A DNA stretch of 64,000 nt, from positions 1,184,001-1,248,000 of the forward strand of contig OZ245003.1 in NCBI GenBank assembly GCA_965223425.1. The letters are read 5' to 3'. This document shows positions 4,970-54,286 of this stretch, piece by piece. This DNA comes from Nitrosopumilus sp. GTDB taxonomy: Archaea > Thermoproteota > Nitrososphaeria > Nitrososphaerales > Nitrosopumilaceae. Both the position numbers and the translations under genes were made by a program. The first letter of the stretch is position 1, and each line of letters starts with the position of its first letter. The notes below the pieces were generated by a model. The model was not told the DNA's origin. It made no database searches and saw only the letters and a list, made by a program, of their open reading frames with translations.

Positions 4970-4970
4970 C

Positions 4971-25335: not shown

Positions 25336-25382
25336 GGCTCTGGCGTATTTTGATGATCTGATCACTGTTTTGCACCAGAACC
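25336..25382. repeat. 47-bp imperfect palindrome, copy 1
   Basis: GGCTCTGGCGTATTTTGATGATCTGATCACTGTTTTGCACCAGAACC. Confidence 0.85.
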
Positions 25383-25391
25383 ACCACACGT

Positions 25392-27901
25392 CAGTAGTTC
25401 CCAGATGTAGATTTACCGCAACCACAGCCAGCATCGGTTCTACCTGCCTCGATCATTGACAAACAACTCGTTCCTGCTTGTAATATGCACGATAAACAAC
25501 GCCATGGTAAGTTTTTCCCCCGCAGAAGACACTCCTCCATACATCTTTCCTGCATCAAGGCAGAACCTGGCAATCCTCCACAGGTTGTACAGAAGCAGCG
25601 GCAGATAAAACATCAGCAGCCTCACAGCCAGGGAGTTGCTGCATGTCCTGCCCATGATTTTCTTTATGACGCGAAACCCCGTCTCGATGCCCCATCTCTT
25701 GCGGTACTGCTCCGGTATGATGTCTGTCATGGCTCTGGCACTCCTGATGGGAATGTTTGTTGCAAATGCAATGTATTGCTCCTTCTCTTCCTCCTCCTCC
25801 CCCTCCTTTTTCTTCTTCCCGTCTCTTTTGACAATTACAAGGTTGTAGGTCACAGTTACGCCGTCCTTGTTGGTCATTGACTGCTGCGATACCTGGTTTG
25901 CCTTTCCGTCCTCGTACAGCTTGACTATCCTCTTGATCTTGGAGTTCATGATGACAGGCATGATGTAGCGGCACCCGCCCTTTCCTGCCTCTGTCATGCA
26001 GTCAACGTTGTAAAAGGCGCGGTCGTACAGGAACACAGTCTTTGAATGTGCGCCTCCTCTGAGGATTTTCGTGCGTGTTTTGGCGATAAAATCGGCCAGT
26101 TTCTCCTTTGCCGTAGTTAGCACATTAAATAATTGAACATTTTCACAGGCAGGATCTCCTTTCTGGCAAACAGCTTGCGTACTGACTGCTCCATCTCATC
26201 TAGCGTGCCAAACACCTTTGCAGACAGTACCCGCTTTATCACCCTCCACTGCATCTCAATGGGATTAAGCTCCGGCGTGTACGGCAGCAGGTACTCCAGA
26301 ACTATCTCGCCGTTGTATCTTTCCAGAAACTCCCTTACCTTTTTGGATTTGTGATATGACGCATTGTCTACAAACAGCAGCACCCTGCCGAATCTTTTGT
26401 GAACCCGTTCCAAAAAGCTGCAAAAGCTGTCGCTGTTTGACTTTTCATAAAACATAAAGTAAAATGCGTTTGCCGCCAAAGCTCCAAAGATGTATCTTCT
26501 TTCGCGTGACAAAACAGAGGGGGATGTGGCGCGCTTGCCGCGCCTTCTCCACCCGTAGCCGGGCCTGTTTGATGCCTTTTGAATCGAGGATGCATCGCCG
26601 GCCAGTACGGTGTATCCCTGCGCCGACTTTTCTGCAACGAGTTTTTTTGCCCGCTCCTGAAACTCTTTTTGCTTTCTTTTTGAGGCTGATCTTGGGTTTT
26701 TTGGACGCGCCTTGCTCCACGAAAAGCCCATCTCCCTGACCAGCTGCAGCACGCCTGCCTTGCTGTACTGCACGCCGAACTTTCGCTTGATGTGCAGCCT
26801 TGCGAGGTTGGAATCCCACAGGCTGCTCTCAAAGCCGCATGATTCTGGCCCCGCATCCAGGTCTGCTGCAAGCTGTCTTGTCTGCAGTCCGTCTAGCAGG
26901 TGCTTTCGTCCCCTGCCGCTGCGCTCGAACCTTGCGCGTATTCCCTCGTCTTGTGCGCGGTTGAGCCATGCAGATATGGTGGACTTGGGCCTTCCCAGCA
27001 TCCTTCCAATCCTGTCTAGCGGCACGCCGTCCTTGCGCTGCATGTACGCAAGCAGCCTGTCGCGTCTTCGGGGATCGGTCTCTTTTTTGTATGCCCTTTT
27101 GAGGTCTGCAACGGCCGGTGTTTGGCAGAAATTTTGCCCCCCTTGCAACCTGTCTCTTTTTTTGTTTGTACATGCAGTGTGTGCGGTATGGCCGGTCTTG
27201 GATCTTTTGGCCAAAAATAATTGTCAAAATGATTCAGTTTTTTTATGTGCATACTACGGCAGCAGCTTCGACTCTAGGACAACCTGCGAGGAGTCCCTGC
27301 CGACTCCGTGCACTGCGACATACGAGAGAAACGTGGATGTTCCTGCCTTTGGACGCGACTTTCTTGTATGCTCCTGCAGATGCTCCCCATGGTATGGCGT
27401 GTCCGTAACGTCTATTGCAATGGCGTCGATGTCCTGCAGCATTCCTGCACGGCCGGCGTGCCGTACCGTGCGTGCCAATGTCTTTGCACACCAGTCCTGC
27501 ACGTCTGCCGGTTCGACGCCACGGACTGCAGACATGACCAGGTCTGCATCAGGCGTACGTGCGCCCGTGTCTTGAAGCCTGCTGCGCCGTACGAGGGATT
27601 CTACAAACGTGTTTCTCTCAGACGCCCTGATTAGCACGTCCAGTATGTCGCCGCATCCGTATACGGCGTTGTGCCTCTCAGACATTGGCATGCCAAGCTT
27701 TTGAAACGACGAGCGCAAGATTTTAAACTGGTTTGATGCTATGTTGTACTGGTGTGCGATCGGATCGTCGTGTGTTTGATTGCTCATGACACCTTGCACA
27801 CCGTAACCTAATCTAGATCTTTGCATTGCAATATGCGGTAACGCACCGGCATCTGGGCACAAGCATACATCTGGGCACAAATCTACATCTGGGAACTACT
27901 G
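25392..27901 (-). mobile_element. ISH3-type element (variant A), transposase ~27787-25440 interrupted by IS630 copy 4
   Basis: TIRs CAGTAGTTCCCAGATGTAGATTT; AIDVTDTPYHG, LYDRAFY, YRKRWGIETGFR; subterminal 18-bp repeats at 27850-27901; no matching TSD. Confidence 0.9.
26114..27256 (-). mobile_element. IS630-family element, copy 4 (frameshift near the start)
   Basis: Inserted at the TA of the palindrome GCCG-TA-CGGC inside the ISH3 transposase. Confidence 0.92.
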
Positions 27902-28569
27902 ATGTACGGGACACGGATTTTTCACAATCAAAGAAACTATATGGGACGTGAGAAAATCCAGTTCTTGGGTGTGGGCATCGTGATAGTACTTCCAGTACTG
28001 ATCACGTCTCTTATGACAATTCATTAGAGAACTCACATCCTCCCTGATCAATATGCGTGAAAAATCACAAAATTAGATCATTTGGTCGAATTTGGCGACA
28101 ACCCCCGCTCCACGTACTTTGCATTGTCTGTGGATGCCACTGTATTGGTTGACAGGCATGCCTGATCCAAGTGTCTTTTGGCGTAGCGATGTTTATCCCA
28201 ATGGCAAAAATTGTTGGCATCAGTCAGGTTTTAGGCGTGGTTATGCAACAGACTAACGTAATCGAAACCTACATTATATTGTGATTGTATCATAAAAATC
28301 GTAAGGTCAAAACAAGGCACGCATACGGTAGCGTGTTACTCTAACTGATTGTGATTTTATGCGTTATTTGTACTCTCAGAAATTATCTTTACATCATTAG
28401 TAGTGTCTACAAATTGTGATGCGGAACAAAAGCCTGCTGATCTCGAAAGATGTATTGGAGTTTTGTTTTGCTTCATTTTCAAATCATTATTACTTTTACT
28501 CATTAGTATATTTTCCCAATTTTATATATAAAAGAAATAGATACGTGAAATTTAACAGATTGTTACTCA

Positions 28570-30655
28570 TCACACACCATTATTAGAAATCCATTCTTCT
28601 TGTCTTAATGTGGATTGGTAACTAATTTCATTACCAGATTGACCAGATACCATTTTTTTGTCAACAGATCGGATTGTTGTATATGTATGGGTAAGTTCAA
28701 TACTCTCAACAAAACATCTATGAAATGTACATGTTTTAGAGTTGTTTCCATCCAACTCTAATTCATAATTCAGCGGTGAACCCAGCTTTAATATTGAATC
28801 ATAATGACTAAATAAATCCATGATATTTTCCTCTAAATCCTCAGAAATTTCTCTAATGTTTAATTTGAGAACTTCCTTAGCCTCTTTTTTACTGATCAAA
28901 TAATTATGTGAAAATCTTTCTTCTACCAAAATCTTAACAATACGTTTGAGGTCTTCATTGTTTTCTAAATGCCTTGAAAGCAACATTTCTGATAAAAATC
29001 TAATTTCAGCACGAGATCTATAGACCCTATCCGTTATTAACATAATTTTACCATTTTCCAGATATTTGTTCGCAACTAGATCCAAAACAGGCAAAATGCC
29101 ATGCATGTCATGTTAAACCACAAAAAGCTGGCAAAAAAACCAAAATTATTCCTGTCCATGACGGGAGTTACCCCCGGGCAGTTTTATGATCTGTGCCCGG
29201 AGATAGAGTCACAGTACAAGATAACGGAGGAAAGACGCCTCTCCAGGAATAACAGAATCCGAGACATCGGCGCAGGGCGCAGGTTCAAACACTGCCGCAG
29301 GGACAGAATCCTGATGGCACTGATCCACTACAGGACATACGTCACACAGGGTCTCCTGAGCCTGCTTTTTGACCTGAGCCAGTCAAATGTCAGCACCGGC
29401 ATACGATACATGGAGCCTGCCATAAAATCTGCACTGTCACTGCCTGACAAAAAGCTTGCAGAGACCAGACAGATATCAGACATTCGGGAGCTGGCATGCG
29501 CCTTTCCTGGGCTGCACGCAATCATTGACGCATCAGAGCAGCAGATTCAAAGGCCCAAGAACAAGTCCATGAGAAAAACACACTATTCGGGCAAAAAGAA
29601 GATGCATACGGTCAAGACACAGTACGTTGTAAACGCAGACGGCATGATTATGCACAGGACGCCGCACTCGCCTGGAAGCAGGCATGACTATTCTGTCTTC
29701 AAGTCAAAGTGCCCAAAACTTTCAAGAGATCTGAAAATCCTTGTGGATCTTGGATATCAGGGGATACGGAAGGACTATCCGGAGCTTGACGTGTTGATCC
29801 CGTACAAGAAGCCAAGGGGCGGCAAGCTTGATGATGCGCAGAAGGAATTCAACCGGGAGCTGTCCAGAGCAAGGGTACTGGTGGAGCATGTCATCTCAAG
29901 GATCAAGAAATTCGGCATAATGAGGGACAAGTTTAGGAACAGACTGTGCAGGTATGACTGCATCAATGCCATAATCTGCGGCCTGATCAACTACAAGCTG
30001 AAGACGCGCGATTTTGTTGTGATACCATGACGTAACAAGGAATCAGTTTGGTGAAACGTCAGGTTTTGTTAGTAATTACAGATCAGGTCTTATTAACAGC
30101 ACCAAGAACCAGAGGATGTATTTTTTCGGCTATAGATATAAAAATTTCAGTTAAATTGTCTTGTGTACTAATATTACATTGCGCTTTTGCCAAATCAAAA
30201 TAGCTCATGACATCCTCAACATTAACAGGAACCGATACAGGTACTGTTGGGTTTTGAGAAATGGGAACCGAAGGTGCAAGAGGATGTTGTGTAGAAGGAT
30301 CAACTGGACCTAGTTGAGCCATTTTAGACATCATTATTGAATTTCCGCCCAATGCCATCAGTGTGCCCGTACTAAGACATTTGTATGGAATAATAAAATG
30401 TAATTCTTTACAATGTTCTCTGATTAAATTAACTATGCCATATCCCGCAACAGTAATACCTCCTGGCGTATAGATGAATAATGATATCCTATCAGAATTA
30501 AATTTGGATATGTGTTTAGAAATAATTGGGATTACGTCATGTGATATTCTTGTTTCTAATCCTTGTCGATCACCTGTAAAATAAACTAAAACTTTTGAAT
30601 TTGTTTTCTCTTCAATCTGCTTAATTAATTTAATTCGTTCCTCTTTACTCAACAT
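28570..30655 (-). pseudogene. SDH-family ClpP-class serine protease (~337 aa) interrupted by an ISL2-like IS
   Basis: IYTPGG, CLSTGTLMALG, LGPVDPS, SHNYLISKKEA; removing the IS and one TSD restores ...LGAVNRSRAEIR... in frame. Confidence 0.88.
29022..30090 (+). mobile_element. IS5-family ISL2-like element with intact transposase (29110-30030)
   Basis: Imperfect TIRs AGACC..ATC.GT.ATTA; TSD TAT; IIDASEQ, YSGKKKMHT, VDLGYQG, RVLVEHVI. Confidence 0.92.
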
Positions 30656-30752
30656 TTTAGCTGAAAAATATAAGGATATAAACCAATCTTGATTGCTAGG
30701 GTGGTTCCATATCTCAAGATTCTGTTCAATCAGAGTGATATAGGCCAATGGT

Positions 30753-31232
30753 ATGATTAACATTCATAAAACTAAGGAAGGAAAATCAGAAGAATATGAA
30801 TCCATATTACAACTCAATTTTGGAAATGTCATAAAAGAAATGCTAAATGTGTTTGACAATAAAGAAGAAAATATCTTTAATTATATGCTTCAAAATTTAA
30901 AACCAGTGAATTTTACTGAAAAAGAATTTGAAAACTGCCATATTATTCCAAATAACATTAAGCAAGAATTTACAAAAATTGCTCAACATACTAAGAGAAA
31001 AATAACGATTCCTAAAGAAGGTATTTCTGAGATTGATGAATCAAAAGCATGGATAAAGTGCAATGATGCGCAAGAAAAAACTGGAATGTCAGGTTTGGTT
31101 TATGATGATGAAAAATTGATAGGGTGTATCGTTGAGCATGAAGACAAATATGCATATTTTCCTTTGACGGCCTTGGAAAATTCAAACATGGCGAAGGTGT
31201 TGACTAAATTGATATCCGATAATTCTACTTGA
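30753..31232 (+). CDS. Hypothetical protein, divergent from the SDH protease
   Basis: Clean 159-aa AT-rich ORF. Confidence 0.6.
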   Translation: MINIHKTKEGKSEEYESILQLNFGNVIKEMLNVFDNKEENIFNYMLQNLKPVNFTEKEFENCHIIPNNIKQEFTKIAQHTKRKITIPKEGISEIDESKAWIKCNDAQEKTGMSGLVYDDEKLIGCIVEHEDKYAYFPLTALENSNMAKVLTKLISDNST

Positions 31233-31586
31233 TCCTGACTTTTTGCTCGTAAAATATGCACAAATGTCAATACTTGAGTAGAGCCATCTTTGATAATAAG
31301 GCCTCAATAGAACCTGTAACAATCCCCCGTCTGTCAGCTAGAAAAAAGCGTCAGACTCAAGCTTTGACTCGTATCTTTTTATGTTCTTTTCAAGTTTTGA
31401 TCTTTTCCGTTTAAGATGCTTTAGATCTAGTCGCCGCCTTTTTGCGTGATTATGAATACTTGATGTTGTTACAGATAACATCTGCTCTTTTTCTGTTCTT
31501 GCTGTGTTTTTGATAGTAATACCTATTTCCAGTTATGGTTTTGATGATGCTCATTACACATTTCTCCATCAAAGATTTTCTAAGGA

Positions 31587-32102
31587 TCATTTTTCAATCC
31601 AATCCAAATCTACAAACATTATATCAGTTGAATTATCTGTATGAGGAATGTGCACAAATCCTCTGCGTACATACCAATCCACTACATCAGATTCGGGATT
31701 CAACATTACAATTCTACAACCAATGTCTTTGGAATATTTTTTTGCTTCGTTGATAGCATGTTGGATCATTGCCTGTCCTACCCCAGATCTCTCAAAATCA
31801 GCATGTGTTGCCAGTTGTCCTATCAATAAAGCCGGAATGTTGCTATGTGGAAAAGCTTCTAGTTTGGCATGTTCTTTTTTATTCGTGTCTGCCATCGCAA
31901 TCGTGATGAATCCTATTACGTGATTTTCGTACTGAAAGACCCAAGTCTTGCCGATTCTGGCTTTTTGATCTTGGAATGAAGTGGTTTGCAAGTACGTGAC
32001 AAACTTGTCCTTAGAACATCTAAAGGCGGCAATTCCGGGTATGTCTCTAGTTAATTTTCTAACTTGCACTTTACTAAAATCAATCTGGGTTTTGGGATGC
32101 AA
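31587..32102 (-). CDS. GNAT acetyltransferase, TacT/AtaT-like toxin
   Basis: FRCS..., VIGFITI, PALLIGQLATHADFERSGVGQAMI, WYVRRGF. Confidence 0.8.
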   Translation of the reverse strand: MHPKTQIDFSKVQVRKLTRDIPGIAAFRCSKDKFVTYLQTTSFQDQKARIGKTWVFQYENHVIGFITIAMADTNKKEHAKLEAFPHSNIPALLIGQLATHADFERSGVGQAMIQHAINEAKKYSKDIGCRIVMLNPESDVVDWYVRRGFVHIPHTDNSTDIMFVDLDWIEK

Positions 32103-32110
32103 TGAAAAAT

Positions 32111-32257
32111 CTAATCTCTTTGTACGTTTAGTTTTTTTGCCTTTGCTATGGCTTCAGTCATCATTTTTCTTTGTTGTGTGGTTGGACCTTTTTTGAGAAT
32201 GTCGACTACCTGATTCCATTGTTTGTTATCTAGTGGTTTTACCTCTCTTAAAGCCAT
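32111..32257 (-). CDS. Putative 48-aa antitoxin (resembles the TacA/DUF1778 C-terminus)
   Basis: PLDNKQWNQVVDILKKGPTTQQRKMM, directly upstream of the GNAT; TATA-like sequence ~25 bp upstream. Confidence 0.55.
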   Translation of the reverse strand: MALREVKPLDNKQWNQVVDILKKGPTTQQRKMMTEAIAKAKKLNVQRD

Positions 32258-32324
32258 GATGTGCCATGTGACAATATTGTATATAAAACATGTCCTCAAG
32301 GTTACGTAAAGTTACAGACTCCTT

Positions 32325-32371
32325 GGTTTTGATTTATTTCGGTGATCTGATCACTGTTTTGCACCAGAACC
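32325..32371. repeat. 47-bp imperfect palindrome, copy 2
   Basis: GGTTTTGATTTATTTCGGTGATCTGATCACTGTTTTGCACCAGAACC. Confidence 0.85.
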
Positions 32372-32374
32372 TAA

Positions 32375-33976
32375 TTATTTTTCTGAGGCTGCCTTGATAA
32401 ATCCTGCAAATGATTCTTCAGGAAACCCGGGACGGCTATTGAATTCTGGATGAAATTGAACTCCCAGATAGAATTTATGTGACGGAATTTCAAGCATTTC
32501 CATTCTCTTCCCCCCATCACTTTCAGCTGAAAATATTAGTCCGTTTTTTTCAAATTCGGGAATATACTCTTTGTTAATTTCATATCTGTGCCTGTGACGT
32601 TTACTGATGCTTGTTGCATTGTAAATTTTTTGCGCAACTGTGTCTTCTTTAATTAAAATTTCATTTGCACCCAATCTGAGGGATCCGCCCATGTCTGAAA
32701 CATCTTTCTGCTCGGGAAGCAAGTCTACCACCGGATTTTTCGCACCGCTCTTAATTTCAGCTGAATTTGCATCCTCCAAATCCAACACACTTCTTCCAAA
32801 TGCAATTGCAGCTAGCTGAAATCCAAAACATATGCCAAGATACGGTATGTTTTTCTCACGTGCAAAATTCGCTGTCTGAATGATTCCTTCAGAACCTCTA
32901 GTGCCAAATCCGCCTGGAACCAGGATTCCGTCATAGCTTGATAAAGTATTGTAATCCGTGATTGATTCGGAGTCTATCCAATCAATATCTGTTGATCTGC
33001 CTATCTGTGCACCTGCATGTCTTAGCGCGTGATTTACACTCACATAACTGTCGGCAAGCGTGACGTACTTTCCGACCATTGCAATCTTTACTTTTTGCTC
33101 TTCATGATTAACCATGTCTTGGGCAATCATATTCCATTTGTCCCAGTTAGCTGAGGCGTTTACCATTCCTACTTTTCCAAACTTTGTAAACATTGAATCC
33201 ATGATTCCCTGATCATAAAGCATCTGCGGCACTTCAAAGATTGATTTTGCATCATGACATGACAAAACGTCTTTTGTTGTTACATTTGTAAACATTCCAA
33301 TCTTCTTTTTTGTTTTTTCTTCTAACGGAAGCGTACACCTGACTGCTAAAAAGTCTGGCTGAATACCAATTCTTCGCAACTCTTGCACGCTGTGCTGAGT
33401 TGGCTTTGTTTTTTGCTCTCCTACCACATCTAGTGACGGTGCTAAAGTTACATGAACAAAAATTACTCCTTGTGAACCTTCTTCTGCCCTCATCTGTCTT
33501 AGTGCTTCTAAAAATGGCAATGACTCGATATCCCCTACAGTTCCGCCACATTCTACAATCAAAAAGTCTAATTTTTCACCTTCTGCTATTTTCTTGATTC
33601 GATTTTTAATTTCATCAGTTACATGTGGAATAATCTGAACGCATGCCCCCAAATATTCACCTTTTCTTTCTGCTTCAATTACTGAAGAATACACCTGAGC
33701 CGTTGTAATGTTGTGACTTTTTGGAATATTCTGATTAAGAAATCTTTCATAATTACCAATGTCCATATCGCATTCCCCTCCATCTTCTGTTACGAATACT
33801 TCGCCGTGAGCTATCGGATTCATCGTTCCTGCATCATAGTTTAGATATGGATCTATCTTGACACAAGAAACTTTTTGGTATGCTAATTGTAATAATTTTG
33901 CAATCGAGGAAGTTGTTATGCCTTTTCCAAGGCCAGACATCACACCGCCTGTGACAAAAATAAACTTCGTCTGCAC
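32375..33976 (-). CDS. pyrG: CTP synthase
   Basis: KFIFVTGGVMSGLGKG, GICFGFQ, RHRHRYE, QFHPEF. Confidence 0.97.
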   Translation of the reverse strand: MQTKFIFVTGGVMSGLGKGITTSSIAKLLQLAYQKVSCVKIDPYLNYDAGTMNPIAHGEVFVTEDGGECDMDIGNYERFLNQNIPKSHNITTAQVYSSVIEAERKGEYLGACVQIIPHVTDEIKNRIKKIAEGEKLDFLIVECGGTVGDIESLPFLEALRQMRAEEGSQGVIFVHVTLAPSLDVVGEQKTKPTQHSVQELRRIGIQPDFLAVRCTLPLEEKTKKKIGMFTNVTTKDVLSCHDAKSIFEVPQMLYDQGIMDSMFTKFGKVGMVNASANWDKWNMIAQDMVNHEEQKVKIAMVGKYVTLADSYVSVNHALRHAGAQIGRSTDIDWIDSESITDYNTLSSYDGILVPGGFGTRGSEGIIQTANFAREKNIPYLGICFGFQLAAIAFGRSVLDLEDANSAEIKSGAKNPVVDLLPEQKDVSDMGGSLRLGANEILIKEDTVAQKIYNATSISKRHRHRYEINKEYIPEFEKNGLIFSAESDGGKRMEMLEIPSHKFYLGVQFHPEFNSRPGFPEESFAGFIKAASEK

Positions 33977-46500: not shown

Positions 46501-49500
46501 ATAGATTCCAGCACGTACGCCCTGGTCGCATCATTAGATGACGACGGCGTCCAGATAGTCGACATTACAGATCCCGCAAAACCCGTCCCAACCGCCTCCT
46601 TTGGTGACGGGGACACCGTCACAGTCGGCAATGCAAACAGGACATTTGACGAGCTTGACGGCGCACGGGCCATCACCACCGTGGATATAGGTTCCAGCAC
46701 GTACGCCCTGGTCGCATCATTTAATGACGACGGCGTCCAGATAGTCGACATTACGGATCCCTCAAACCCCTTCCCGACAGCCTCCTTTGATGACGGGGAC
46801 ACCGTCACAGTCAATGGGACAACCAGGACATTTGACGAGCTTGACGGCGCACGGGCCATCACCACCGTGGATATAGGTTCCAGCACGTACGCCCTGGTCG
46901 CATCACTCACTGACAACGGCGTCCAGATAGTCGGCATCTCGTCAAGATCTATTACAAACCAGCCCACTGTAGCCCCAACCCTCGTATCTGTTGAAAGGCA
47001 CGACCCTGCCACACAGAGCACAAACGATACCACCCCGACCTTCAGGGCAACCTTCAGCAAGGCAGTAACCAACGTGGATGCGCCAGACTTTGTGATCATA
47101 GGTGATGCCACAGCGACAGTCTCTGCTGTCACCCCGGTATCTGATACGGTATACCACGTGGAGGTAAACGTGACTGCAGACGGCATAGTCAACCTTGGCA
47201 TTGATGCAGGACACAACATCCAAGATGCCGCAGGCAACTCCCTGTCCGGTACTGAGCCTACCGATACAGACGAGCCATACACCATAGATACTGCTCCGCC
47301 AACCCTCCTGGCCGTTACAAGGATACACCCTGCAGCAGAAAACACAAACGATCGCAACCCGATCTTCAGGGTCATATTCGGCGAGGCAGTCACCAACGTG
47401 GACAAGGAAGACTTTGAGACCTTGGGCAATGCCACTTCAACAGTCTCTTCGGCCACCCGCATATTTGATACCCAATACGACGTGCTGGTAACGGTAACTG
47501 CAGACGGCACGGTCAACCTTGGCATTGATGCAGGACACAACATCACAGATGTTGCAGGCAACGCCCTGTCAGACACGACACCTACCGGAGCAAACGAGCC
47601 ATACACCATAGATACCGTTCAGCCAACCATCCTGTCCATTAAAAGGCATAACCCCCTCACAGAAAACACAACTGATTCCACCCCGACCTTCAGGGTAACC
47701 TTCAGCGAGGAGGTACTTGAGGTGAACAAGCCAGACTTTGCGATCACAGACAGCAGCAGCGCCAATGCGACAGTCTCTACAGTCACCCCTGTACCCGGCA
47801 GTACGGTATACGACGTGGGGGTGACCGTAACTGCAAACGGCACAGTCAGCCTTGTGCTTGCAGGATTACACTATATCATTGATACTGCAAGCAACTCCCT
47901 GTCTCCTGCGGATCCGCCCGTCAGCGAATCATACAATGTCCTCCTCACGCAGGCAGAAAACCGGCAGCCGACAATCACCCTAACCGGCGACAACCCTGCA
48001 ACTGCAGAAAGGTACGTCACGTATACAGATGCCGGGGCAGCCTGCGCCGATCCTGACGGCGATGATATAACGCTTACCAGCTCCTCCAATGTGGACACGG
48101 ACACAGTATCTTTGCCGGCATCTCCTTACCGGTACACCTACTCGTGTACAGACCAACACGGGCTTGCCGCGACAAACAAGACCAGACTCGTCAGTGTGGA
48201 GGATACCGTGAAACCTGTGATTACCCTTGTCGGCCCGGCATCAGTACCGCTGACAGTGGGCGACACATACACGGAAGAAGGGGCAACCTGCACTGACTCT
48301 GGCCGTCTGCTTGGTGCTGCCAGTATCGGCGGCGCTACGGTGGACACGGCTGTCGTCAACGAGTACGATGTGGTGTATGCCTGCTCAGACGGGTACAACA
48401 ACGCTATTCCGGTAACCAGGACCGTAACTGTTACAGAGCCCACGATAACGCCACCACCACCGGACGTCAACGTCCCCCCATCTGCGTCAATCAGCGCGCC
48501 TCCCCGGGCAGCAGAGGGAACGCAGGTAACCCTTGACGGGAGCGGCTCGACAGACACTGACGGCACCATACAATCATACAACTGGACTGCCAGCAACCCG
48601 GCAGTAGCCATCACCGGCAGCAACCTGCCAACTGCATCATTTATTGCGCCCCAGGTCACAGAGGACACTTCTCTGGCCATCACGCTGAAGGTAACTGACG
48701 ACGACGGCGCCACAAACTCTGCACAGCACAACATGACCATAACCAACACAAGCCCGCCACCTGACGACAGTGCCGCCCCGACGTTTACTGCCAGGACCGG
48801 CCCTGCCACAAACCAGATAACTGTAACATTCTCCAAGGCCGTCAACAGCACTGCTGACTCCCACGCAGCATGGGGCGTGGCAGGAAGCACGGTCACCGCA
48901 GTCACCGGCCTTGACGGGACAGGCAATACTGCAACCCTGACGCTGCAAAGCCCGGTACAGCCGCCTGATGCAACGCCTGCCGTAACATACAATGCCGATG
49001 CGGGGGACATCTCAGATGTTGCAGGCAACCCGCTGGCAACTGCAACTGTCACTGCTGCTGCGGGACATCCTGCAGGTCTTCACATCCACCTGATCGGCGA
49101 TGCCTTCCTATACCACACATACGGGGAACCGTACACCGACAAGGGCGCCCTGTGCCATGACGCAGACGGAAACGACATAACTGACACCGGCGACTATGAA
49201 AACCCGCCATACCTGAATCAGACGCAGACAATAAACGCCACCCTTCATGCAGATACCGTTCTTAATTTTACCCACCAATCCCAAAACGAGTACCGCCCCT
49301 TTGATCCGCAGGAGGTAATATACAAGTGTGCTACCTCGCCGTCTGAATTCGTAGAGGAGACCAGGACCGTAGCCCTGCGTGATGACACACCTCCTGAAAT
49401 CCGACTAAACGGGCCACGCGACGTGGATCTGGAGATAGGCGAGACATTTGAGGAGACTGCCACATGCACTGACGCTCCTCTCAAATACCAGACAGAACTT

Positions 49501-52500
49501 CTAAACGCCGCATTTTATCTGACTTTTCGCATCTCTTTCCTCCCTGACGGGTACCAAGACACCGCAGGAGAGCACACGATAAGCTACACATGTTCGGACT
49601 CTAAAGGCAACGACGCAGAGGATACAAGCAGGACGCTTCATGTAGGCACGCCTGACAACACGCCACCCGTGCTTGCAGTCAACCCCGGTGTGGTGACCAC
49701 CCTGGCAAACGGCACGCATGTAGTACGGCAGGATGTCGGCTTTGCAGCAGCAGGTGACGGCGGCGGCCTGCAGTCCGCAGTATCATGCACCGATAACAGG
49801 GACAGCACCCCTGCAATCACGCTGGATCCTGCCACGGTGGACACCTCAGTTAGCGGCGCCCACACCATAACGTACTCCTGCACGGATGCTGCCGGCAACC
49901 CATCTAATGATATAACAGTAACCTGGGATTTCGGTCCTGCAGCCCCCGTGCTTGCAGTAACGCCCGGAGACACCCAAGTCACGCTGGCACTCGACGCGTC
50001 ATACGAGATCCCCGCAGCATCCTGCACAGACCACAGGGACGGCGACATCACCGGCACCGGGATTGTAACTGCCATCTCGTCTGGAGGCCAGCCAGTCGAC
50101 GAAATAGACACCTCCTCTGCAGGCACATACGGTATAACGTACTCCTGCACGGACTCTGATGACAACACCTCAGAGCACAACGTGACAGTCACAATCCTGC
50201 CTGCCGTAGTTGACAGCACGCCGCCTACCATAGTGCTAAACCCGCCTGAAATCATATTTGTTCCAGTCGGGGGCAGCTTTGCAGATGCTGATACCGGCGC
50301 CCTCTGCATTGATGGCCAGGGCAATATCATAGAAGGCAGAACCACCGTGGATGCCACCGCACTTGACACGGCCGTTCTTGGCAACCACACCGTGACGTAC
50401 TCCTGCACGGTTTCTGAAGAAAACCCCCAGTCTAGCACCATATCAAGGACAGTCAGCGTGTACGGATTCACCGTAAACGGAAACATCGCCGACTTTGCAA
50501 CTGACATCACCACCTCTGATGACTACGAGGAAGGCATAATCCAAAACATTACGAATATTGAGAATCCATACCAAAGCATAAAGTATTACGATACAGCCGG
50601 GCAAGACACCGACTCTTTTGACAATCAAACACGCCCGGCAGGAACCTATACCGTACAGTATACCGTGTCTACCCCAATGTCGTCCCCGCCCATAACCTAC
50701 ACCATCACAGAGACAGTAACCGTGGTAAACGCCACCACGCAGCCAGACGGCAACACGCCCCCAATTGTGGCAATCAGCGTAGTACCTGAAGTAGAGGCAG
50801 CAGAGGGAACGCTGGTATCCCTTGACGGGACTAACTCGAGGGATGATGACGGCACCATATCATCATACGCGTGGACCACCGACGATGCGTCCATCGCAAT
50901 AACTGATGCTGACCGGCCAACTGCATCATTTACGGCGCCCCAGGTCACAGAAGACACTCCTCTGCTCATCACGCTGCGTGTAACTGACAACCAAGGCGCT
51001 CCAGGCTCTGCACAGTATACCCTGATCATAACTGACAGCGAGTCTCCTGTCGTACCTGACACCACGCCTCCAACATTTACGGTAGACGGCCACACAGGCG
51101 ACTTTGAGACGTCCCTAACAGAAGGCCAGACCTACAGGAACGGCAAGATAGATAACATCAACGAGACTGGCAGCCATCCGACCAGCACGGAGATAAGGTA
51201 CTACAGCGGCACCGGCGATGTCATCACCACCACTGACGAAAACGAGATCAACTCCATTAACAATACCAGGCCTGCCATCGGAGGCTACACCATACAGTAC
51301 CGCGTCTCTGACTCGGCCGTTTCACCAAACACCCACACAATCACAGAGACACTCACCGTGCGCGCACCTGCCACGGTAACCATAGGGGCAATCGTCTCGA
51401 CTACCGGCTCCATCTCGTCACTTGGCATACCTGCAAATGACGCCATACACCTGGCAGTAAATGACTTTAACGACAGATACCTTGCGCCAAAGGAGGCCGC
51501 ATGGAGGCTTGCAGTGTCTGGGTATGATGATAGGTCTACTTCTGAGGGCGCAATTGCAGCACTGGAACTGCTTGCAGGCAGCAACATAACCTCCATTGTG
51601 GGGCCCCTCACAAGCGATGCGCTGTCTGCAGTAAAGGGCCACGCCCTGTTTGATGAGCCGCCAAGGCTTGCCATAAGCTACGCATCCACTGCGCCTGCGG
51701 AGGATCTCAAGCAGAAAGACGACCGCGTCTTTAGGACAGTCCCTGATGATTCCAACACAGTCAGGGCGTACGTCAGCCTCTTTGAGGCAGACTCTGTGGA
51801 TTACGTGATTCCGGTGTTCCGCAACGACGCGTGGGGGGTAGCACTGAACCGGACCCTTGCAGATGAAATTGATGATCATAACAACAACAACAACAACAAC
51901 AACGAAATAACCGTACACGGCGGAATACTGTACGACCCTGACACCGTGTCACTTTCTGCCAACACAACGCTTGCCTTGCTGAATGACACGCTAAGTCGGG
52001 ATTCCGTCAGTGAAAAGGCCCCCGCAGTGGTGGTGTTCGGATTTAGTGAGACCCTTGACATACTCGACGAGGCTGCAGCCACTGCGAATCTGCCTGCAGC
52101 AAAGTGGTACGGCAGCGACGCCGTGGCGCCATCAAAGCTGCTTGAGGGTGATACCACACGGGACGAGAATCGCAGGGCATTCCTTGAGCGCACCGACTAT
52201 AACGTGCTCACCCTTGCAATAGACCAAAACGAGGCAAACAAGAGGATAGACCGCTCTGTGGACAACGCTGACGTATACTCTTATGCGGCATACGATGCAG
52301 TATACATACTCGGCACTGCCATACACCTCAACGGCGGCCCTGCAGGCAATGTGGTCAACGGGGGCCTGATTGGCAACATCACGCAGGTAGCAGACAACGC
52401 AAACGGGCACTACACAGACCCTGCCATGGGCAACACCACGCTCAACGAGTACGGCGACCTGCTGCAGGCTGACTACTTTGTCCTCTCCCTTGATGCAGGC

Positions 52501-53526
52501 AGCGGGACCTCCTTTGAGCCAGAATTCAGGTATTACGGATCATCAGGCACCCTTGAGGGCCTTGTATCCTCTGGCGGCGGTGGTGGTGGCAGCAGCGGAG
52601 ACGTCTCTGCCCCCTCAATCCGCACGGGCTTTGGCGCGGGCCAGTACCCCCTGGTATACGACGGGGTAAAGTACGGCCCTGACACGATCAACTCGCCCCA
52701 CACTGCCACGATACGCGCAGGCAGCGGCGAGAGGCTTCTCAGCACCCTCACAGTATACGAGAACGGCGGGGCGCAAAACGTACAGCACGTCGACATGTTT
52801 GTCGCACACGACGGCAGGACAATACACAACGACGGCACAGAAACCCACGTGACCTACGATTCAGGCAACGTCCGGATAACTGATCCGCACGGCCTTATTG
52901 CCAGTGCCACTGTGGATGCGTCTGCCATTGATGCCACAAAGGCGCAGTTTGAGTTTGTCATAACCTTTGCCAAGAAGGTCCCGCTCTCTGACGTGCTGTA
53001 CCGCCTGTGGGACACCGGCAGAAACGCGCTTTACATCCACCTTGAGGACGCCCTTGTGGTGTCTGAGGGAAGGAAAGGCGGCAGCAGCAGTAGCGGCGGC
53101 GGCGGTGGCGGAGGCGGCAGCAGCAGCAGTGGCGGCGGAGGCGGAGGCGGCGGTAGCAGCAGCAGCAGCAGCAGTACTGTCCCCCCAGCCACCGGCAGCG
53201 GCACAACCACAACAACAACCGCTACTGGCAACGGCACCGCAGCTGACACTGCAGACAAGCAGCAACCACAACAACCCCGACAGGGCTTTACCGCAGAACA
53301 GCTTGACACCCTAAAGCAGTGGGGCGGATTTGCGTCCCAGTCCGCATCTGACTCGCAGCTTTTAGCCCAGTTCGGAATAGAGGGCACCAGCATCCCCACA
53401 TACTTTAAGCAGACAGCAAAGTGGTTCCTCGACGCAGACGCAGATGACGCAGATGACGGCCTGACTGCGCAGGAGTTTGTCGCAGCGCTGTCGTACCTCG
53501 GGCAGCGCGGGCTGCTGCTAAACTGA
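34597..53526 (+). CDS. Giant (6309 aa) modular cell-surface protein/adhesin
   Basis: Signal peptide; LVIVD-like propeller repeats; lectin-like domain; many PKD/Ig domains; SwmB-like domains; FSPDGTKM propeller; Cys-containing Ig (DUF5011-like) domains; type-1 periplasmic binding domain; Gly/Ser linker; thaumarchaeal-type C-terminal IP..FKQTAKW...EFVAALSYL motif. Confidence 0.9.
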   Translation: MQRLIKSPLPAIAAIAALVLLIPLCISLADAAIDSPVPVASVADGSAYPELAGAWDITTVVINASTYALVTGSHDLGVQIIDITDPASPTHVAAIIDGQSHSNSKKFDTLSSPHGITTVDIGTSTYALVASSHEGGIQIINITDPADPAPVVSIRNDKTYPKLAGAWDVTTVKINSSTYAMVTSNESTNGGGVQIINITNPADPAPVSSFGNGDAVTVGEEEKTYDTLAGANGITTVNMGSSTYALVTAYYDNGVQIINITNPASPVPAASITDNSTINLAGAVDITTVKIDSSTYALVAAYYDNGVQIINITNPASPVPAASITDNSTINLAGAYGITTVTDGSSTYALVAASTDNGVQIIDITNPASPVPAASITDEQEHDNGKTFDELEGAHGITTVTDGSSTYALVASTGDNGVQIIDISTAAEEESTTDRQPSTQSDTDAITTSKQTSADATSVPADWGLIPSGLGEGQDRFRLLIVTSTEHNATSSDIAVYDTFVQNLVAAGHEDIQEYSSSFRVVGSTSTVDARNHTGTTHTDTNKGPPIYWLDGAKVADNYQDFYDGSWDEERSARNENGDEFVFGTTSIFTGSKSDGTKASFFYLGNNLGALLGLPNIDRDPLTSDNPFTSSETLRFYGISPVFQIGTTNAAPIADAGPNQHVQERDTVTLDGTNSADPDNGDDTTLTYSWSQTSGTPAVTLANANTTSPTFTAPSTANFTALTFALTTNDGSLSSNNDTVTVTVYDDQTIFARSATYYENHGILGITFNKDVNLLISTELDLFHIRESGSDDGGSNLLSSKLLITTGSTAHFKLDSSTDSAVRALASPEADIEPDFTYSQGGFSFDYDQNDLPIKSGAFLPLIESVTLAARDELTVRFLSNVDTDITNGTGWILFGADVTAANLAIESNSDPGGIKDTMTLALNASLPGTATRFDDVHVKYQRPSGDGGGIFNGTEYLGNTADIKAADGLPPVPVSAAAASAMSTSITVTFSENVLGSHGAGSFSLSRAAGSATTTPVPAVVPETIFTDSETLTLNLNSTIGNNDLTVAYNQDLAGSGIADVAGNPVASFEGIPVGTQSAPTPPTPPDGNAPPTASIAAPARAAEGTTVTLVGTGSSDSDGTISLYAWTANNTSITIIDADKAEASFTAPQVTANATLVITLKVTDDDGATGSANHTMTLYDTNRLPAADAGPNQHVQEGDTVTLDGTRSADPDDGDTLTYSWSQTSGTPTVPLTNADTASPTFTAPSTANFTALTFALTTNDGSLSSNNDTVTVTVYDDQTIFARSATYYENHGILGVTFNKDVNLLISTELDLFHIRESGSDSGGSNLAFPLLLHTSGSTAHYKLDPSTDNAFRALTSPEADIEGFFTYSQNGFSFEYDQNDLPIGKSGAFLPLIESVTLVAHNELAVRFLSNVDTDITDGTGWILFGADAAGLAIKSNSDPGGTTDAMTLALNASLPDTATRFDAVHAHYQRPPADGDGATSHRGGIFNGTEYLDNARNIMANDGLPPVPVSAAAASATSTSITVTFSENVKGSHGTGSFSLSRAAGSATTSTPIPAVVPQTILTDSSTLTLGLDGPVGNNTLVISYRQDLEGSSMADVAGNPVASFANIPVGTPDVNRLPTAIISAPARVTEGDAVTLDGTASADDDGTISSYEWIANDTSITITNPSQATASFTAPRVTEDTSLVITLQVTDDDGDTGSANHTMTIANVNQRVTDPPRFVSAELDESAGVLNITFDKAIDASGVNATKFHIRESGSVTGGVTLSGASVTVTTPNTITLRLAEADRQTVIAMNTPYLEIDAGAVSDRSGNLLTESFDLTHDPSFSGSFYVAQDTQPVDIAFSPDGTKMFIMGIDHKTVRQYALSTPFDVTNASYNNKFFVVKTQDDTPLSIAFSPDGTKMFMMGGEHGAVRQYALSTPFDVTTASYSDEFFVVRHQDDQPVGITFSPDGTKMSMVGRVHDAVRQYALSTPFDVTTASYSDEFFVVRNQEKEPTGFAFSPDGTKIFIVGRQHDAVQQYALSTPFDITTASYNNKSFVVKTQDDAPNGIAFSSDGTKMFIIGNQHDRVYEYHMRLLYDINRLPTADAGPNQHVQEGDTVTLDGTGSADPDGGDDTLTYSWSQTSGSPAVTLTNANTTSPTFTAPSTTTAADPITLEFTLTASDSSSSNGTDTVTVTVYDDQTVFARSATYYENHGLLDITFNRDIDRTREIVFDSFLIRESGSNSGGSVLTSSEWLRDTAAGSTMTFRLNPSTDDAVGALTSPEIDIESFAVFGTNNILFNYDQVELPVVKSGAFLPLIDSVTLITHNELAVRFLSNVDTDITDGAGWILFGADAAGLAIKSNSDPGGTTDAMTLALNASLPGTATRFDDVHVHYQRPPADDAAGQRGGIFNGTEYLDNARDIKAADGLPPVPVSAAADSATSTSITVTFSENVKGSHGAGSFSLLRAAGSATTSIPIPAVVPQTILTDSSTLTLGLDGPVGNNTLVIGYNQDLEGSSMADVAGNPVASFANIPVSTPFTGDTGGGTPDANRRPIAEAGEPQTVNEGDTVTLDGTASHDPDGDPLTYVWEQAALQGEPPLRIEIDGATATFTAPQVTGLTFYTFTLTVYDGKVYSHVDTVNVIVNNSASDDPVADAGANQTENEGSTVTLDGTASADPNGDPLTYLWRQVSPESPQIALDDAASATPSFVAPVTLAAWTDFVFELAVDDGQGNSHTDTVTVTVRDTVSNRPVADAGANQTVNEGDTVTLDGTGSADPNGDPLTYSWKQDRPATPQLLLDDLNSPVANFVAPQVRNATEYVLELTVNDGHGNRNTDLVTITVRDTGSADPNIPVARAGGGQRVMEGSTVTLDGTASADPNGDPLTYLWRQISIPGAPTVQLEGANTATATFTAPAVDAEIDLVFELAVNDGDGNRDTDYVVIIVRDGDHEHAGSVHEHVGPTADAGPDQAYPEGTVITLFGGSSRGQVDGLDAVLQHRWIQLLPETPQVRIVNANHSEASFLAPQVSSTTEFLFLLTVWDRTISTGTDFVTMTVIDVAPDRPTAQAGRDQEINEGFTVHLNGRDSTDPNGDPLTYLWRQVSPASPQVSFDNATSSRTSFTAPTVSNQTDFVFELAVDDGQGNSHTDTVTVTVFDSASNSPTAEAGAAQNVTKGSTVRLDGTLSSDPNGDQLTYSWSQLIPNRPRVQLDDSASPTPSFTVPSLTLGDLLIFELIVDDGNGNTGKDNVILTVVRPPPAADAGPNQHVQEGDTVTLDGTNSTDPDGGDDTLTYSWSQTSGSPAVSLENANTTSPTFRAPQTGSTATLEFTLTASDDSLSNGTDTVTVTVYDDQTVFARSATYYENHGILGITFNRDIDRLPGILFDLFSIRESGSNSGGSDLGSSEWLENTAARSTMIFMLDPSTDDAVRALTFPEIDIEAFAVSGTNGIQFMYDQTELPVVKSGAFLPRVTTAVATAQSEITVRFLSNVDTDITNGTGWSVGASVDVGLEENLAVESNSDPGGTTDAMTLALNGSLPTGFRSGAIFLDYQRPSDDGTGIFNGTEYLGSTNRILLTDGIPPVIVNASAASPTATSITLTFSERITGQANAESFSLSRTAGSATTTPVPAVVSQVEAGSSPTITLNLNGTIGNNDLVIGYNRDLGGDSSMADIAGNPVASFADIPVATPPADPVLPTPPEDDSYAIDSPVPVASITDGQTHSNGKTFDELNGVYDIATVKIDTSTYALVVASTFGADNGVQIIDITDPANPAPVASFDKGDTVTVGNATKTFDELLGARAITTVKIDTSTYALVAAFTDNGVQIINVTNPDLPAPVASFDDGDTVTVNGTTKTFDTLRGTRAITTVDIDSSTYALVAASNDDGVQIVDITDPAKPVPTASFDDGDIVTVGDTEKTFDELNGARAITTVDIGSSTYALVASFNDDGVQIVDITDPTKPVPTASFDDGDTVEVGGTNKTFDELDQANGITTVKIDSSTYALVASLDDDGVQIVDITDPAKPVPTASFGDGDTVTVGNANRTFDELDGARAITTVDIGSSTYALVASFNDDGVQIVDITDPSNPFPTASFDDGDTVTVNGTTRTFDELDGARAITTVDIGSSTYALVASLTDNGVQIVGISSRSITNQPTVAPTLVSVERHDPATQSTNDTTPTFRATFSKAVTNVDAPDFVIIGDATATVSAVTPVSDTVYHVEVNVTADGIVNLGIDAGHNIQDAAGNSLSGTEPTDTDEPYTIDTAPPTLLAVTRIHPAAENTNDRNPIFRVIFGEAVTNVDKEDFETLGNATSTVSSATRIFDTQYDVLVTVTADGTVNLGIDAGHNITDVAGNALSDTTPTGANEPYTIDTVQPTILSIKRHNPLTENTTDSTPTFRVTFSEEVLEVNKPDFAITDSSSANATVSTVTPVPGSTVYDVGVTVTANGTVSLVLAGLHYIIDTASNSLSPADPPVSESYNVLLTQAENRQPTITLTGDNPATAERYVTYTDAGAACADPDGDDITLTSSSNVDTDTVSLPASPYRYTYSCTDQHGLAATNKTRLVSVEDTVKPVITLVGPASVPLTVGDTYTEEGATCTDSGRLLGAASIGGATVDTAVVNEYDVVYACSDGYNNAIPVTRTVTVTEPTITPPPPDVNVPPSASISAPPRAAEGTQVTLDGSGSTDTDGTIQSYNWTASNPAVAITGSNLPTASFIAPQVTEDTSLAITLKVTDDDGATNSAQHNMTITNTSPPPDDSAAPTFTARTGPATNQITVTFSKAVNSTADSHAAWGVAGSTVTAVTGLDGTGNTATLTLQSPVQPPDATPAVTYNADAGDISDVAGNPLATATVTAAAGHPAGLHIHLIGDAFLYHTYGEPYTDKGALCHDADGNDITDTGDYENPPYLNQTQTINATLHADTVLNFTHQSQNEYRPFDPQEVIYKCATSPSEFVEETRTVALRDDTPPEIRLNGPRDVDLEIGETFEETATCTDAPLKYQTELLNAAFYLTFRISFLPDGYQDTAGEHTISYTCSDSKGNDAEDTSRTLHVGTPDNTPPVLAVNPGVVTTLANGTHVVRQDVGFAAAGDGGGLQSAVSCTDNRDSTPAITLDPATVDTSVSGAHTITYSCTDAAGNPSNDITVTWDFGPAAPVLAVTPGDTQVTLALDASYEIPAASCTDHRDGDITGTGIVTAISSGGQPVDEIDTSSAGTYGITYSCTDSDDNTSEHNVTVTILPAVVDSTPPTIVLNPPEIIFVPVGGSFADADTGALCIDGQGNIIEGRTTVDATALDTAVLGNHTVTYSCTVSEENPQSSTISRTVSVYGFTVNGNIADFATDITTSDDYEEGIIQNITNIENPYQSIKYYDTAGQDTDSFDNQTRPAGTYTVQYTVSTPMSSPPITYTITETVTVVNATTQPDGNTPPIVAISVVPEVEAAEGTLVSLDGTNSRDDDGTISSYAWTTDDASIAITDADRPTASFTAPQVTEDTPLLITLRVTDNQGAPGSAQYTLIITDSESPVVPDTTPPTFTVDGHTGDFETSLTEGQTYRNGKIDNINETGSHPTSTEIRYYSGTGDVITTTDENEINSINNTRPAIGGYTIQYRVSDSAVSPNTHTITETLTVRAPATVTIGAIVSTTGSISSLGIPANDAIHLAVNDFNDRYLAPKEAAWRLAVSGYDDRSTSEGAIAALELLAGSNITSIVGPLTSDALSAVKGHALFDEPPRLAISYASTAPAEDLKQKDDRVFRTVPDDSNTVRAYVSLFEADSVDYVIPVFRNDAWGVALNRTLADEIDDHNNNNNNNNEITVHGGILYDPDTVSLSANTTLALLNDTLSRDSVSEKAPAVVVFGFSETLDILDEAAATANLPAAKWYGSDAVAPSKLLEGDTTRDENRRAFLERTDYNVLTLAIDQNEANKRIDRSVDNADVYSYAAYDAVYILGTAIHLNGGPAGNVVNGGLIGNITQVADNANGHYTDPAMGNTTLNEYGDLLQADYFVLSLDAGSGTSFEPEFRYYGSSGTLEGLVSSGGGGGGSSGDVSAPSIRTGFGAGQYPLVYDGVKYGPDTINSPHTATIRAGSGERLLSTLTVYENGGAQNVQHVDMFVAHDGRTIHNDGTETHVTYDSGNVRITDPHGLIASATVDASAIDATKAQFEFVITFAKKVPLSDVLYRLWDTGRNALYIHLEDALVVSEGRKGGSSSSGGGGGGGGSSSSGGGGGGGGSSSSSSSTVPPATGSGTTTTTTATGNGTAADTADKQQPQQPRQGFTAEQLDTLKQWGGFASQSASDSQLLAQFGIEGTSIPTYFKQTAKWFLDADADDADDGLTAQEFVAALSYLGQRGLLLN

Positions 53527-54239
53527 GGGGACGCCAAAGGGTATCACCTGCCCGTCAAAGACAGATGCCCGCCGCAGATCACCGGGAACGCAGCTAGGAT
53601 CTGCTTGTCTGGCACCACGCACACACACAGGGTCTTACCAAACCCCCACCCCTGCAGTCCCCAGTTGAGCCTGCAACCGGATTGCGGCGCATCATCATAT
53701 CATCATCACATATGCGTTGTTTTCCTTGGCCGTTCCAAACAGCAGCAGCAGCAGCAGCAGCAGCGCCCTTTTCAGATCCCTGGCCGTATAATGGGCAGTG
53801 CCCTCTCTGGCTCTTAACCTGGCAAACCCCGTTGCGCAAATACGCGCCTCTGGCAGGCCCTTCTGATATGCAGTCTGCAATCGCAGTGCTGTTTTCTGCC
53901 GGCCTGGTGACATGACAGTCTCCGCACCGGTCAGACCCGGGCAGCGGCAAGCCCCTGTACATCACCCCAACCGGCAGTTTCCTGCACCTTTTGCATCCAT
54001 GGCCGGAGCTACGCACCGTCTGGCTGCCCATTCCTCCAAAACCCCGCAGATCCGAGAACCTGTATGTCGCCGCTTTCTCCCCCCCGGATCTCCGTAGCGT
54101 ATCTCCAGACGAACAACCACCTGCGTTCACTTTTTCTAGTTTTCAGAGGCGGCCCTGTCTCAATCCAGGTTCCAGTCTGCAGTGCCGTGCTTTCTGCAAA
54201 CTTGCATCTCTGATCAAGCGTGATTGGATCAGACTCGAC

Positions 54240-54286
54240 GGTTATGGTGTATTCCAGCGATCAGATCATCATTTTGCACCAGATCT
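54240..54286. repeat. 47-bp imperfect palindrome, copy 4
   Basis: GGTTATGGTGTATTCCAGCGATCAGATCATCATTTTGCACCAGATCT. Confidence 0.8.

Follow-up and report, generated by a model that had tools for sequence, protein, structure and literature searches.

Paired 47-bp repeats with the arms of a transposon border two strain-specific islands in a Nitrosopumilus genome

Insertion sequences of the IS6 family, in the description given by PMC7986276, generate 8-bp target duplications, have GG tips accompanied by cTGTt and caaa motifs, and encode transposases of 213–254 aa. The related elements IS26 and IS257 form pseudo-compound transposons in which cargo lies between co-oriented copies and, according to PMC7885326, the targeted cointegration carried out by IS26-type elements requires identical sequence at the reacting end only. 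[quoted passage not shown] Archaeal elements filed under IS6 occur in Halobacteria, Thermococcales and Sulfolobales, and PMC6807381 describes their family membership as disputed and their behaviour as lacking any experiment. Here we describe a locus of the thaumarchaeon Nitrosopumilus sp. where four gene-less repeats of about 47 bp border, in pairs, two chromosomal islands, one of which carries a giant gene. The window analysed is a stretch of 64,000 nucleotides (GenBank assembly GCA_965223425.1, contig OZ245003.1, positions 1,184,001 to 1,248,000), and its positions are counted from its first base; the genome is designated G000 and related Nitrosopumilus-type genomes G002, G007, G048 and G073. 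On balance, we favour the reading that the repeats are a transposon reduced to its two ends, belonging to a lineage resembling IS6 and IS26, moved in trans and carrying cargo in the manner of IS26.

The original prediction, made from the letters of the window, described four co-oriented palindromes, with copies 1 and 2 enclosing island A and copies 3 and 4 enclosing island B (Table 1). Their number, places and orientation were borne out. A 20-base pattern of the right arm, GATCAYYRTTTTGCACCAGA, gave four matches in the window at up to two mismatches, all on the plus strand, against a mean of 0.02 in shuffled controls, where none of 100 shuffles yielded four, and a stricter motif occurred four times in the whole 2.64-Mb genome, each time inside the same 29-kb stretch. 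A profile trained on 13 palindromes beyond the window, with no window copy among them, recovered exactly these four matches in the window at E<0.01, with E values of 9e-11 for copy 1 and 1e-9, 6e-6 and 4e-3 for the others. The right arm was rightly described as conserved and the left arm as degenerate: right arms are identical at 23/23 positions between copies 1 and 2 and at 21/23 between copies 3 and 4, with 18–19/23 between the pairs, while left arms agree at 16/23 (copies 1 and 2) and 15/23 (copies 3 and 4), within a range of 13–17/23 over all comparisons. The right arm and centre of copy 2 are the same as those of copy 1 over 28 bases. The 10 bases to the left of copies 2 and 4 (32315–32324 and 54230–54239) both start CAGACTC, which may reflect chance or a target preference, the bases beside copy 4 being duplicated cargo.

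The term palindrome holds for part of the structure. The outer 5–10 bp and the inner 4–7 bp of the arms can pair, but the remainder is unpaired, the T-rich heptamer YRTTTTG is present in both arms in direct and not inverted orientation, and single strands of the four copies fold no better than shuffled sequences (z −1.6 to +0.3). The last result bears on the proposal that the repeats are hairpin elements, either similar to repetitive extragenic palindromic (REP) sequences, integron attC sites or IS200/IS605-type ends, or acting as terminators or regulator sites. An intergenic, roughly palindromic sequence would suit such a role, as would the position of copy 2 directly after the pyrG stop codon, and REPs are known to serve as targets for insertion sequences. 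The folding argues against it, as do the absence of Y1 transposase (PF01797) matches from G000, when control genomes gave matches, and the absence of any match to Rfam families in the window. The repeats are, moreover, missing from the same intergenic sites in 12 relatives and their spread in the genus is patchy, a strict 14-base core being present in 3/61 genomes, a figure that undercounts the family since G007 scores zero yet has looser copies. Taken together, these results make hairpin elements a very improbable explanation.

The four window copies are a local sub-family of a wider repeat family. A search with nhmmer detected about 17 full 47-bp copies and about 8 single arms in G000, and the consensus of the full copies is GGTTCTGGaagATTTTGGTGATCwGATCACtaaAATTTACCAGAACC. 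A degenerate arm pattern matched 28 times in G000, 57 times in G002 and four times in G048, and a reversed control pattern gave no match; 27 arm matches occur in G073, a named Nitrosopumilus assembly, and at least four palindrome-like matches, with 80–88% identity, in G007. Nearly all copies are intergenic and no open reading frame (ORF) crosses the 47-bp repeats into their flanks. A possible coding motif, resembling VLVQNSDQI and lying in a frame open in both directions, was discarded because stops in the flanks of nearly all copies leave no gene. In G048, two copies of the TTTTGCACC sub-family lie inverted and 1.6 kb apart (locus L056, C2:1695590–1697263), and between them are a remote paralogue of NAD kinase (26% identity) and an ORF of 163 aa, with one copy occupying the place expected for the first codons of the paralogue; we treat this link to NAD kinase as a coincidence.

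Judged by their sequence, the 23-bp arms form the two ends of a whole 5,085-bp transposon in G073 (locus L070, positions 1539–6623). This element carries an identical 23-mer, GGCTCTGGTAAATCTAGGTGATC, at both ends, from which inverted similarity extends about 80 bp inwards through several internal GATCACTTTTGAACAG repeats, and it is flanked on both sides by a perfect 8-bp target duplication, GAATCCCA. Of its five ORFs, one (L070:4832–6442) encodes a 537-aa protein with PF13610, another, of rve type, possibly represents a nested element, and the remaining three are unnamed. The earlier suggestion that the repeats consist of two terminal inverted repeats fused head to head is supported by this identity of arms and termini. 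Shorter gene-less derivatives with the same ends and internal repeats have lengths of 120, 128, 172, about 205 and 232 bp, and the 47-bp form is the limit case in which two arms lie one base apart with their tips outward. In G002 and G073, short derivatives flank cargo encoding RmuC, PAPS reductase, HEPN/nucleotidyltransferase proteins, serpins and an 1801-aa surface protein. At two of the G073 loci (L073 and L072), derivatives of the same element, about 235 bp long, alternate with two serpin genes (460 and 494 aa), and two identical arms in inverted orientation, separated by 7.4 kb, enclose the gene for the 1801-aa surface protein.

The sole transposase gene found consistently beside these ends carries PF13610, the IS6-type DDE domain, which scores 29.5 bits in the G000 copy and 33.3 bits in the G073 copy at a cut-off of 27. 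In G000 the long transposase gene (C1:767550–769178, locus L014) is followed by the same end structure, consisting of several GATCAC-TTTTGAACAG repeats and then a terminal arm; gene and end structure occur together twice in G073, and a remnant is present in G002. The 537-aa protein, in which cysteine motifs are added at the N and C termini, belongs to a family of which public metagenomes contain 28 members of about 520–540 aa, PF13610 being assigned to 24. A search of solved structures by sequence yielded nothing useful, the best E value being 0.04. Other PF13610 ORFs of G000 encode 340–345 aa and have GGTTCTGT tips, and no test linked them to the arms. IS630 was rejected as the parent: DDE_3 genes lie near some of the half copies, but the ends of the IS630 sub-families in G000 are different (TAGTTAGC..., CGTAGTGA... 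and TATAGTCT...). Within the G000 long transposase gene there is an in-frame repeat of about 108 bp (C1:768,9xx; residues 495–530), which is found again at about nine further positions, including one in the window (21753–21863). Nine matches to the 3' end of the transposase (residues ~493–531) were therefore judged to be copies of this small repeat and not transposon remnants, these residues being a 36-residue insert confined to the G000 copy.

Both islands are strain specific. Twelve relatives were examined, ten of them as loci L037–L046 together with G073 and G048, and in all 12 NAD kinase adjoins pyrG, with gaps of 3 to 1,067 bp, while trpA follows within the fetched stretch in 9/12. A profile search found both intergenic sites free of copies in all 12, and the comparison of the NAD kinase–pyrG and pyrG–trpA junctions that had been called for thus reveals empty sites with zero copies. 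In two of the relatives copies lie elsewhere in the stretches compared, 6–7 kb from pyrG in G002 and about 5 kb upstream in G073. Other palindrome loci of G000 show a similar association: all five tested lie in, or at the edge of, DNA absent from relatives, only one being right at a border (Table 1), and copies in conserved intergenic DNA regardless of islands, which would have told against the proposal, were not encountered. The arm motif can be used as a marker of recently acquired DNA in these genomes. A third strain-specific insertion in the window, of about 6.9 kb (17375–24274), separates a pfkB-type kinase gene from NAD kinase, genes that are 44–50 bp apart in relatives; it contains two elements of IS630 type, a split transposase of IS110 type, one DDE_Tnp_1 fragment and a fragment in which DNA methylase and HNH are fused, and has no family arm at its borders.

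The empty sites are relevant to an alternative already raised in the original prediction, that the repeats are att-like sites of a site-specific recombinase; on this view, circular islands with one site would have recombined into a chromosomal site, so that each border was left with a site. Co-orientation of the copies at both borders fits such a scheme, as does the lack of duplications around single copies, and the genome contains 12 matches to tyrosine recombinases (PF00589). None of these 12 falls in the window, however, relatives have no site at the empty positions, and the arms are transposon ends with a perfect 8-bp duplication. A central crossover would, moreover, produce hybrid copies and not pairs that share the right arm and differ in the left, and we regard att-like sites as improbable.

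Island B is a duplicate of another part of the same chromosome. Its homology to the paralogous locus starts at 34107, the base after copy 3, and ends at 54238, within one base of copy 4; identity is 100% over the left 73 bases and 98% over the right 740. The source locus lies between the genes for a 415-aa zinc alcohol dehydrogenase and eIF-1A, and the first 28 bases of island B are the last 28 bases of the dehydrogenase gene there. A shift in G+C content had been noted at copies 3 and 4 and is confirmed, with values passing from 0.39 to 0.50–0.62 and back to 0.41. The giant repeat-rich gene exists in two copies, that of the window and one at the other locus of about 24.8 kb; their ends are nearly identical, and their internal PKD/Ig repeat blocks are rearranged, with 72–98% identity. 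Many internal joints occur there in public contigs.

When aligned with the empty sites of G007, G048 and G073, the flanks of island B meet at one point and no flanking DNA is missing. The motif CTGTAA does flank the bracketed unit, as had been observed, but it was not wholly outside since its left copy overlaps copy 3 by two bases; it is likely to be a decayed target duplication of the unit formed by copy 3, island B and copy 4. Three structures elsewhere carry signatures of IS6-type transposition, the first being the full element with its perfect duplication. In G073 (L071), two 128-bp elements lie in inverted orientation 12 kb apart, with the 8-mer GGCATTAT next to an end of the first and the reverse complement of this 8-mer outside the second, an arrangement that, from the sequence, is what intramolecular copy-in with inversion leaves. 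In G000, a co-oriented pair at C1:1473259 and 1473912 has the outer flanks GATTAGGA and GATTAAGA, which match at 7/8 positions, and among 16 x 16 flank comparisons this adjacent pair gave the sole direct left-right match of at least 7/8. The claim that paired copies carry cargo thus finds support in the 12 empty sites, the duplicate nature of island B and this second G000 pair. Movement by cointegrate formation alone, copy-in or targeted conservative, as in the IS6 family, would agree with the co-oriented pairs around cargo and with the inversion that bears an inverted 8-mer.

These borders also allow us to weigh the possibility that the repeats are passive landing pads, old and immobile remnants that attract mobile DNA, with islands accumulating next to them but not moved by them. 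Several features of G000 would accord with it: most palindromes lie inside nests of mobile elements, the high-copy insertion sequence of island A begins 2–9 bases after copy 1, and a different insertion sequence, with GGGGTTGTCGCC ends, occupies the centre of a palindrome (C1:801762–801967), where it has an 8-bp duplication, GATCTGAT, and lies beside half palindromes at 1886882 and 1181686. Island B, however, is a plain chromosomal duplicate without ends of its own and yet meets the tips of copies 3 and 4 within one base. In addition, each copy is more similar to its partner than to the copies of the other pair, the duplication is placed outside the pair and does not surround the cargo, and no copy is present at the empty sites of the 12 relatives. 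Landing pads are therefore an unlikely explanation for the repeats. The insertion sequence with GGGGTTGTCGCCAAATTC ends (about 50 ends in the genome), or a short derivative of it, found in the exact centre of a 47-bp palindrome has two further copies adjoining half palindromes and two more adjoining GGTGATCA-like sequence, which suggests that it prefers the GATCWGATC centre.

Island A had been described as carrying an SDH-type protease and a GNAT gene between NAD kinase and pyrG, and both genes were found there, but most of the island consists of insertion sequences. Its high-copy insertion sequence is split by an IS630-type element at 26113–27256. Among the DNA lost at this island is the 5' portion of a small zinc-ribbon gene, located downstream of NAD kinase in relatives, with copy 1 in its place. 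The 3' remnant of this gene is seen on the minus strand at 25262–25335; the protein is about 51 aa long in relatives, with CxxC and CxxxC motifs, and several relatives are without the gene altogether. A reading of the DNA to the right of copy 1 as the N-terminus of the zinc-ribbon gene proved spurious, this DNA being the end of the high-copy insertion sequence. The load of insertion sequences in G000 is very heavy for the genus, with 84 matches to DDE_3 (IS630-type) and many others, including at least 40 copies of the 1.38-kb DDE_Tnp_1 element, and the genome measures 2.64 Mb compared with 1.2–2.4 Mb in relatives. Several matches to tyrosine recombinases lie on contig C2 (123 kb), which is higher in G+C content (0.47) and has IS630-type genes of its own.

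Table 1. Coordinates of the repeats, islands and neighbouring genes in the window, and of further repeat loci elsewhere in the genome
Feature	Position	Strand	Description	Context
Copy 1	25336..25382	+	Mini-element of 47 bp; left and right arms around 1 central base	Left border of island A
Copy 2	32325..32371	+	Mini-element	Right border of island A; pyrG stop codon 3 bases away
Copy 3	34061..34106	+	46-bp mini-element, outer left tip eroded	Left border of island B; 85 bp upstream of pyrG start
Copy 4	54240..54286	+	Mini-element	Right border of island B
Island A	25383..32324		6.9 kb; mostly insertion sequences, with protease, GNAT and unnamed ORFs	Absent from 12 relatives
High-copy insertion sequence, DDE_Tnp_1 transposase	25387..27905	-		At least 40 genome copies
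SDH-type protease	30083-30763	-		Island A
GNAT	31587-32102	-		Island A
Island B	34107..54239		20.1 kb	Duplicate of C1:1927230-1952059; carries giant gene
Giant ORF	34597..53526	+	6309 aa; PKD, Ig-like and ANF_receptor domains	
CTGTAA left copy	34057-34062	+		Overlaps first two bases of copy 3 as delimited
CTGTAA right copy	54288-54293	+		Two bases after copy 4
NAD kinase	24275..25273	+	With C-terminal MarR-like domain	Native left neighbour
pyrG	32375..33976	-	CTP synthase	Native, between copies 2 and 3; 79-92% protein identity and same neighbours in relatives
trpA	54473..55282	-		Native right neighbour
L019	C1:125072			Copy 52 bp past block conserved in 5/5 relatives; strain-specific DNA beyond
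L017				6.1 kb without match to any of 5 relatives, repeats apart
L013				Inside 2.15-kb strain-specific insertion, 0.2 kb from edge
L016				Strain-specific DNA, 0.74 kb from nearest conserved block
L011				Inside 4.2-kb strain-specific insertion, 0.72 kb from edge

The course of events that we favour would begin with mini-elements mobilised in trans and behaving in the manner of IS26. A segment with one mini-element would be joined to the chromosome next to a mini-element, or by copying one, and would end between two co-oriented copies as a pseudo-compound transposon. For island B, a 20-kb piece of the same chromosome, or that of a close relative, would have been put between pyrG and trpA; island A would have followed the same route between NAD kinase and pyrG, with about 190 bp lost, and would later have been filled with other insertion sequences. 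Loss of neighbouring DNA is a usual by-product of IS26-type intramolecular events. Each pair would represent a resident and an incoming copy, joined by a conservative route that depends on end identity, and not two replicas. The right arms of a pair are identical, or nearly so, and the left arms unlike, and each pair is for this reason probably a resident with an incoming copy. Left arms within pairs differ at 7–8 of 23 positions although the ends of island B differ from their source by 0–5%; simple replication would give identical pairs, and the difference fits the targeted conservative route. An earlier 8-bp duplication belonging to the resident copy would end up outside the final pair, which is where the likely duplication lies at island B.

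The claim that the element is IS6-like draws on PF13610, a match at odds with the NCBIfam IS6 model (below), and is supported by the 8-bp duplications and by the end motif: read from its tip, the right arm in the window is GGTTCTGGTGCAAAA, with the GG tip, CTG and CAAA, and the family consensus here is GGYTCTGG/T.... In common with the pseudo-compound transposons of IS26 and IS257, the present system has GG tips followed by CTG/CAAA motifs, 8-bp duplications, cargo between co-oriented copies, inversions with inverted duplication, copies that are often without duplications, loss of neighbouring DNA and the pattern of identity at one end. It differs in that the flanking units are 47-bp gene-less end pairs and not insertion sequences of 0.8 kb, in its transposase of 537 aa against the 213–254 aa given in PMC7986276, and in its thaumarchaeal host. 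The small single-gene form of IS6 elements (about 0.7–0.9 kb) is likewise absent, the parent being 5,085 bp long with inverted ends of about 80 bp and extra ORFs. With the archaeal elements filed under IS6 it shares the type of host, PF13610 and inverted ends of at least 18 bp, which are longer than the bacterial ones in the account of PMC6807381, whereas those elements are single-gene and of ordinary size, unlike the 5.1-kb element here. The IS6 MITEs resemble the repeats in lacking genes, in consisting of both ends of an element and in using a transposase in trans, and the present lineage also has forms of 120–232 bp; the 47-bp form is different in having no internal sequence, in forming paired borders of large cargo and in having no duplication at single copies. 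As regards MITEs in general, the repeats lack genes, have the inverted ends of a known transposon as their limits and occur in several copies, but the parent's target duplication flanks none of the 16 full G000 copies compared. A literature search on thaumarchaeal MITEs and palindromic elements yielded, among the papers listed and judged by title, none on such elements, a result that does not establish their absence from print.

A number of results weigh against the reading that we prefer. IS6 transposases are half as long as the 537-aa-type protein, which scores 37 bits on the NCBIfam IS6 model NF033587 against a cut-off of 125; given the failure of this model, and an element far larger than any IS6 element, we claim likeness of action and not family membership. 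The only 537-aa-type copy in G000 is without about 41 N-terminal residues, having been cut by another insertion sequence, and carries the 36-residue insert mentioned above. Since this copy is damaged, the helper must be an earlier copy, another PF13610 protein or one encoded by a donor genome, and it is the adjacency of gene and ends that suggests that the 537-aa protein binds the arms or acts on them. None of the 16 full G000 copies compared has left and right 8-mers of its own agreeing at seven or more positions, which leaves the simple insertion of single copies undocumented. Island A has no target duplication and has lost the sequence of about 190 bp that is present in G007 and G048, and the duplication at island B amounts to 6/8 when taken as an 8-mer, with offsets of 1–2 bases. 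The source locus of island B (C1:1927230–1952059) carries no arm or mini-element now; this absence, together with a breakpoint inside the end of the dehydrogenase gene, indicates that the window copy is the derived one and that its limits were set by the mini-elements. No movement was observed, and that the elements have moved is proposed from the comparisons given above. Contigs from four public runs (three studies) have the same arrangement at copies 1, 2 and 3, with no joint that skips or circularises an island, although such contigs drop rare forms and neither show nor exclude excision.

Little is understood of how ammonia-oxidising archaea, which are plentiful in the sea and tend to have small, stable genomes, acquire strain-specific islands and their very large surface proteins. 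The locus bears on this question as a base-level example of a 20-kb segment, with a gene for 6309 aa, copied between chromosomal sites and bounded by 47-bp elements that consist of ends only. It also connects what happened at island B with a lineage of transposons that has an unusually long IS6-type transposase not covered by the IS6 reviews PMC7986276 and PMC6807381, in which the word Thaumarchaeota is absent. Should the mechanism be confirmed, gene movement of the IS26 kind, known from the spread of antibiotic resistance in bacteria, would extend to archaea, and an insertion sequence would prove to be reducible to 47 bp. More tentatively, the 47-bp element could be a fully working, trans-driven 'mini-IS26' of ammonia-oxidising archaea, which picks up arbitrary chromosomal segments as circles and re-inserts them beside another mini-element, conservatively and through identity of the right arm only, a bolder proposal to which we give less credence than to the preferred reading. 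If true, it would be the first sign of an IS26-type dual mechanism outside bacteria and would provide these streamlined archaea with a general route for duplicating and exchanging giant surface-protein, serpin and defence genes.

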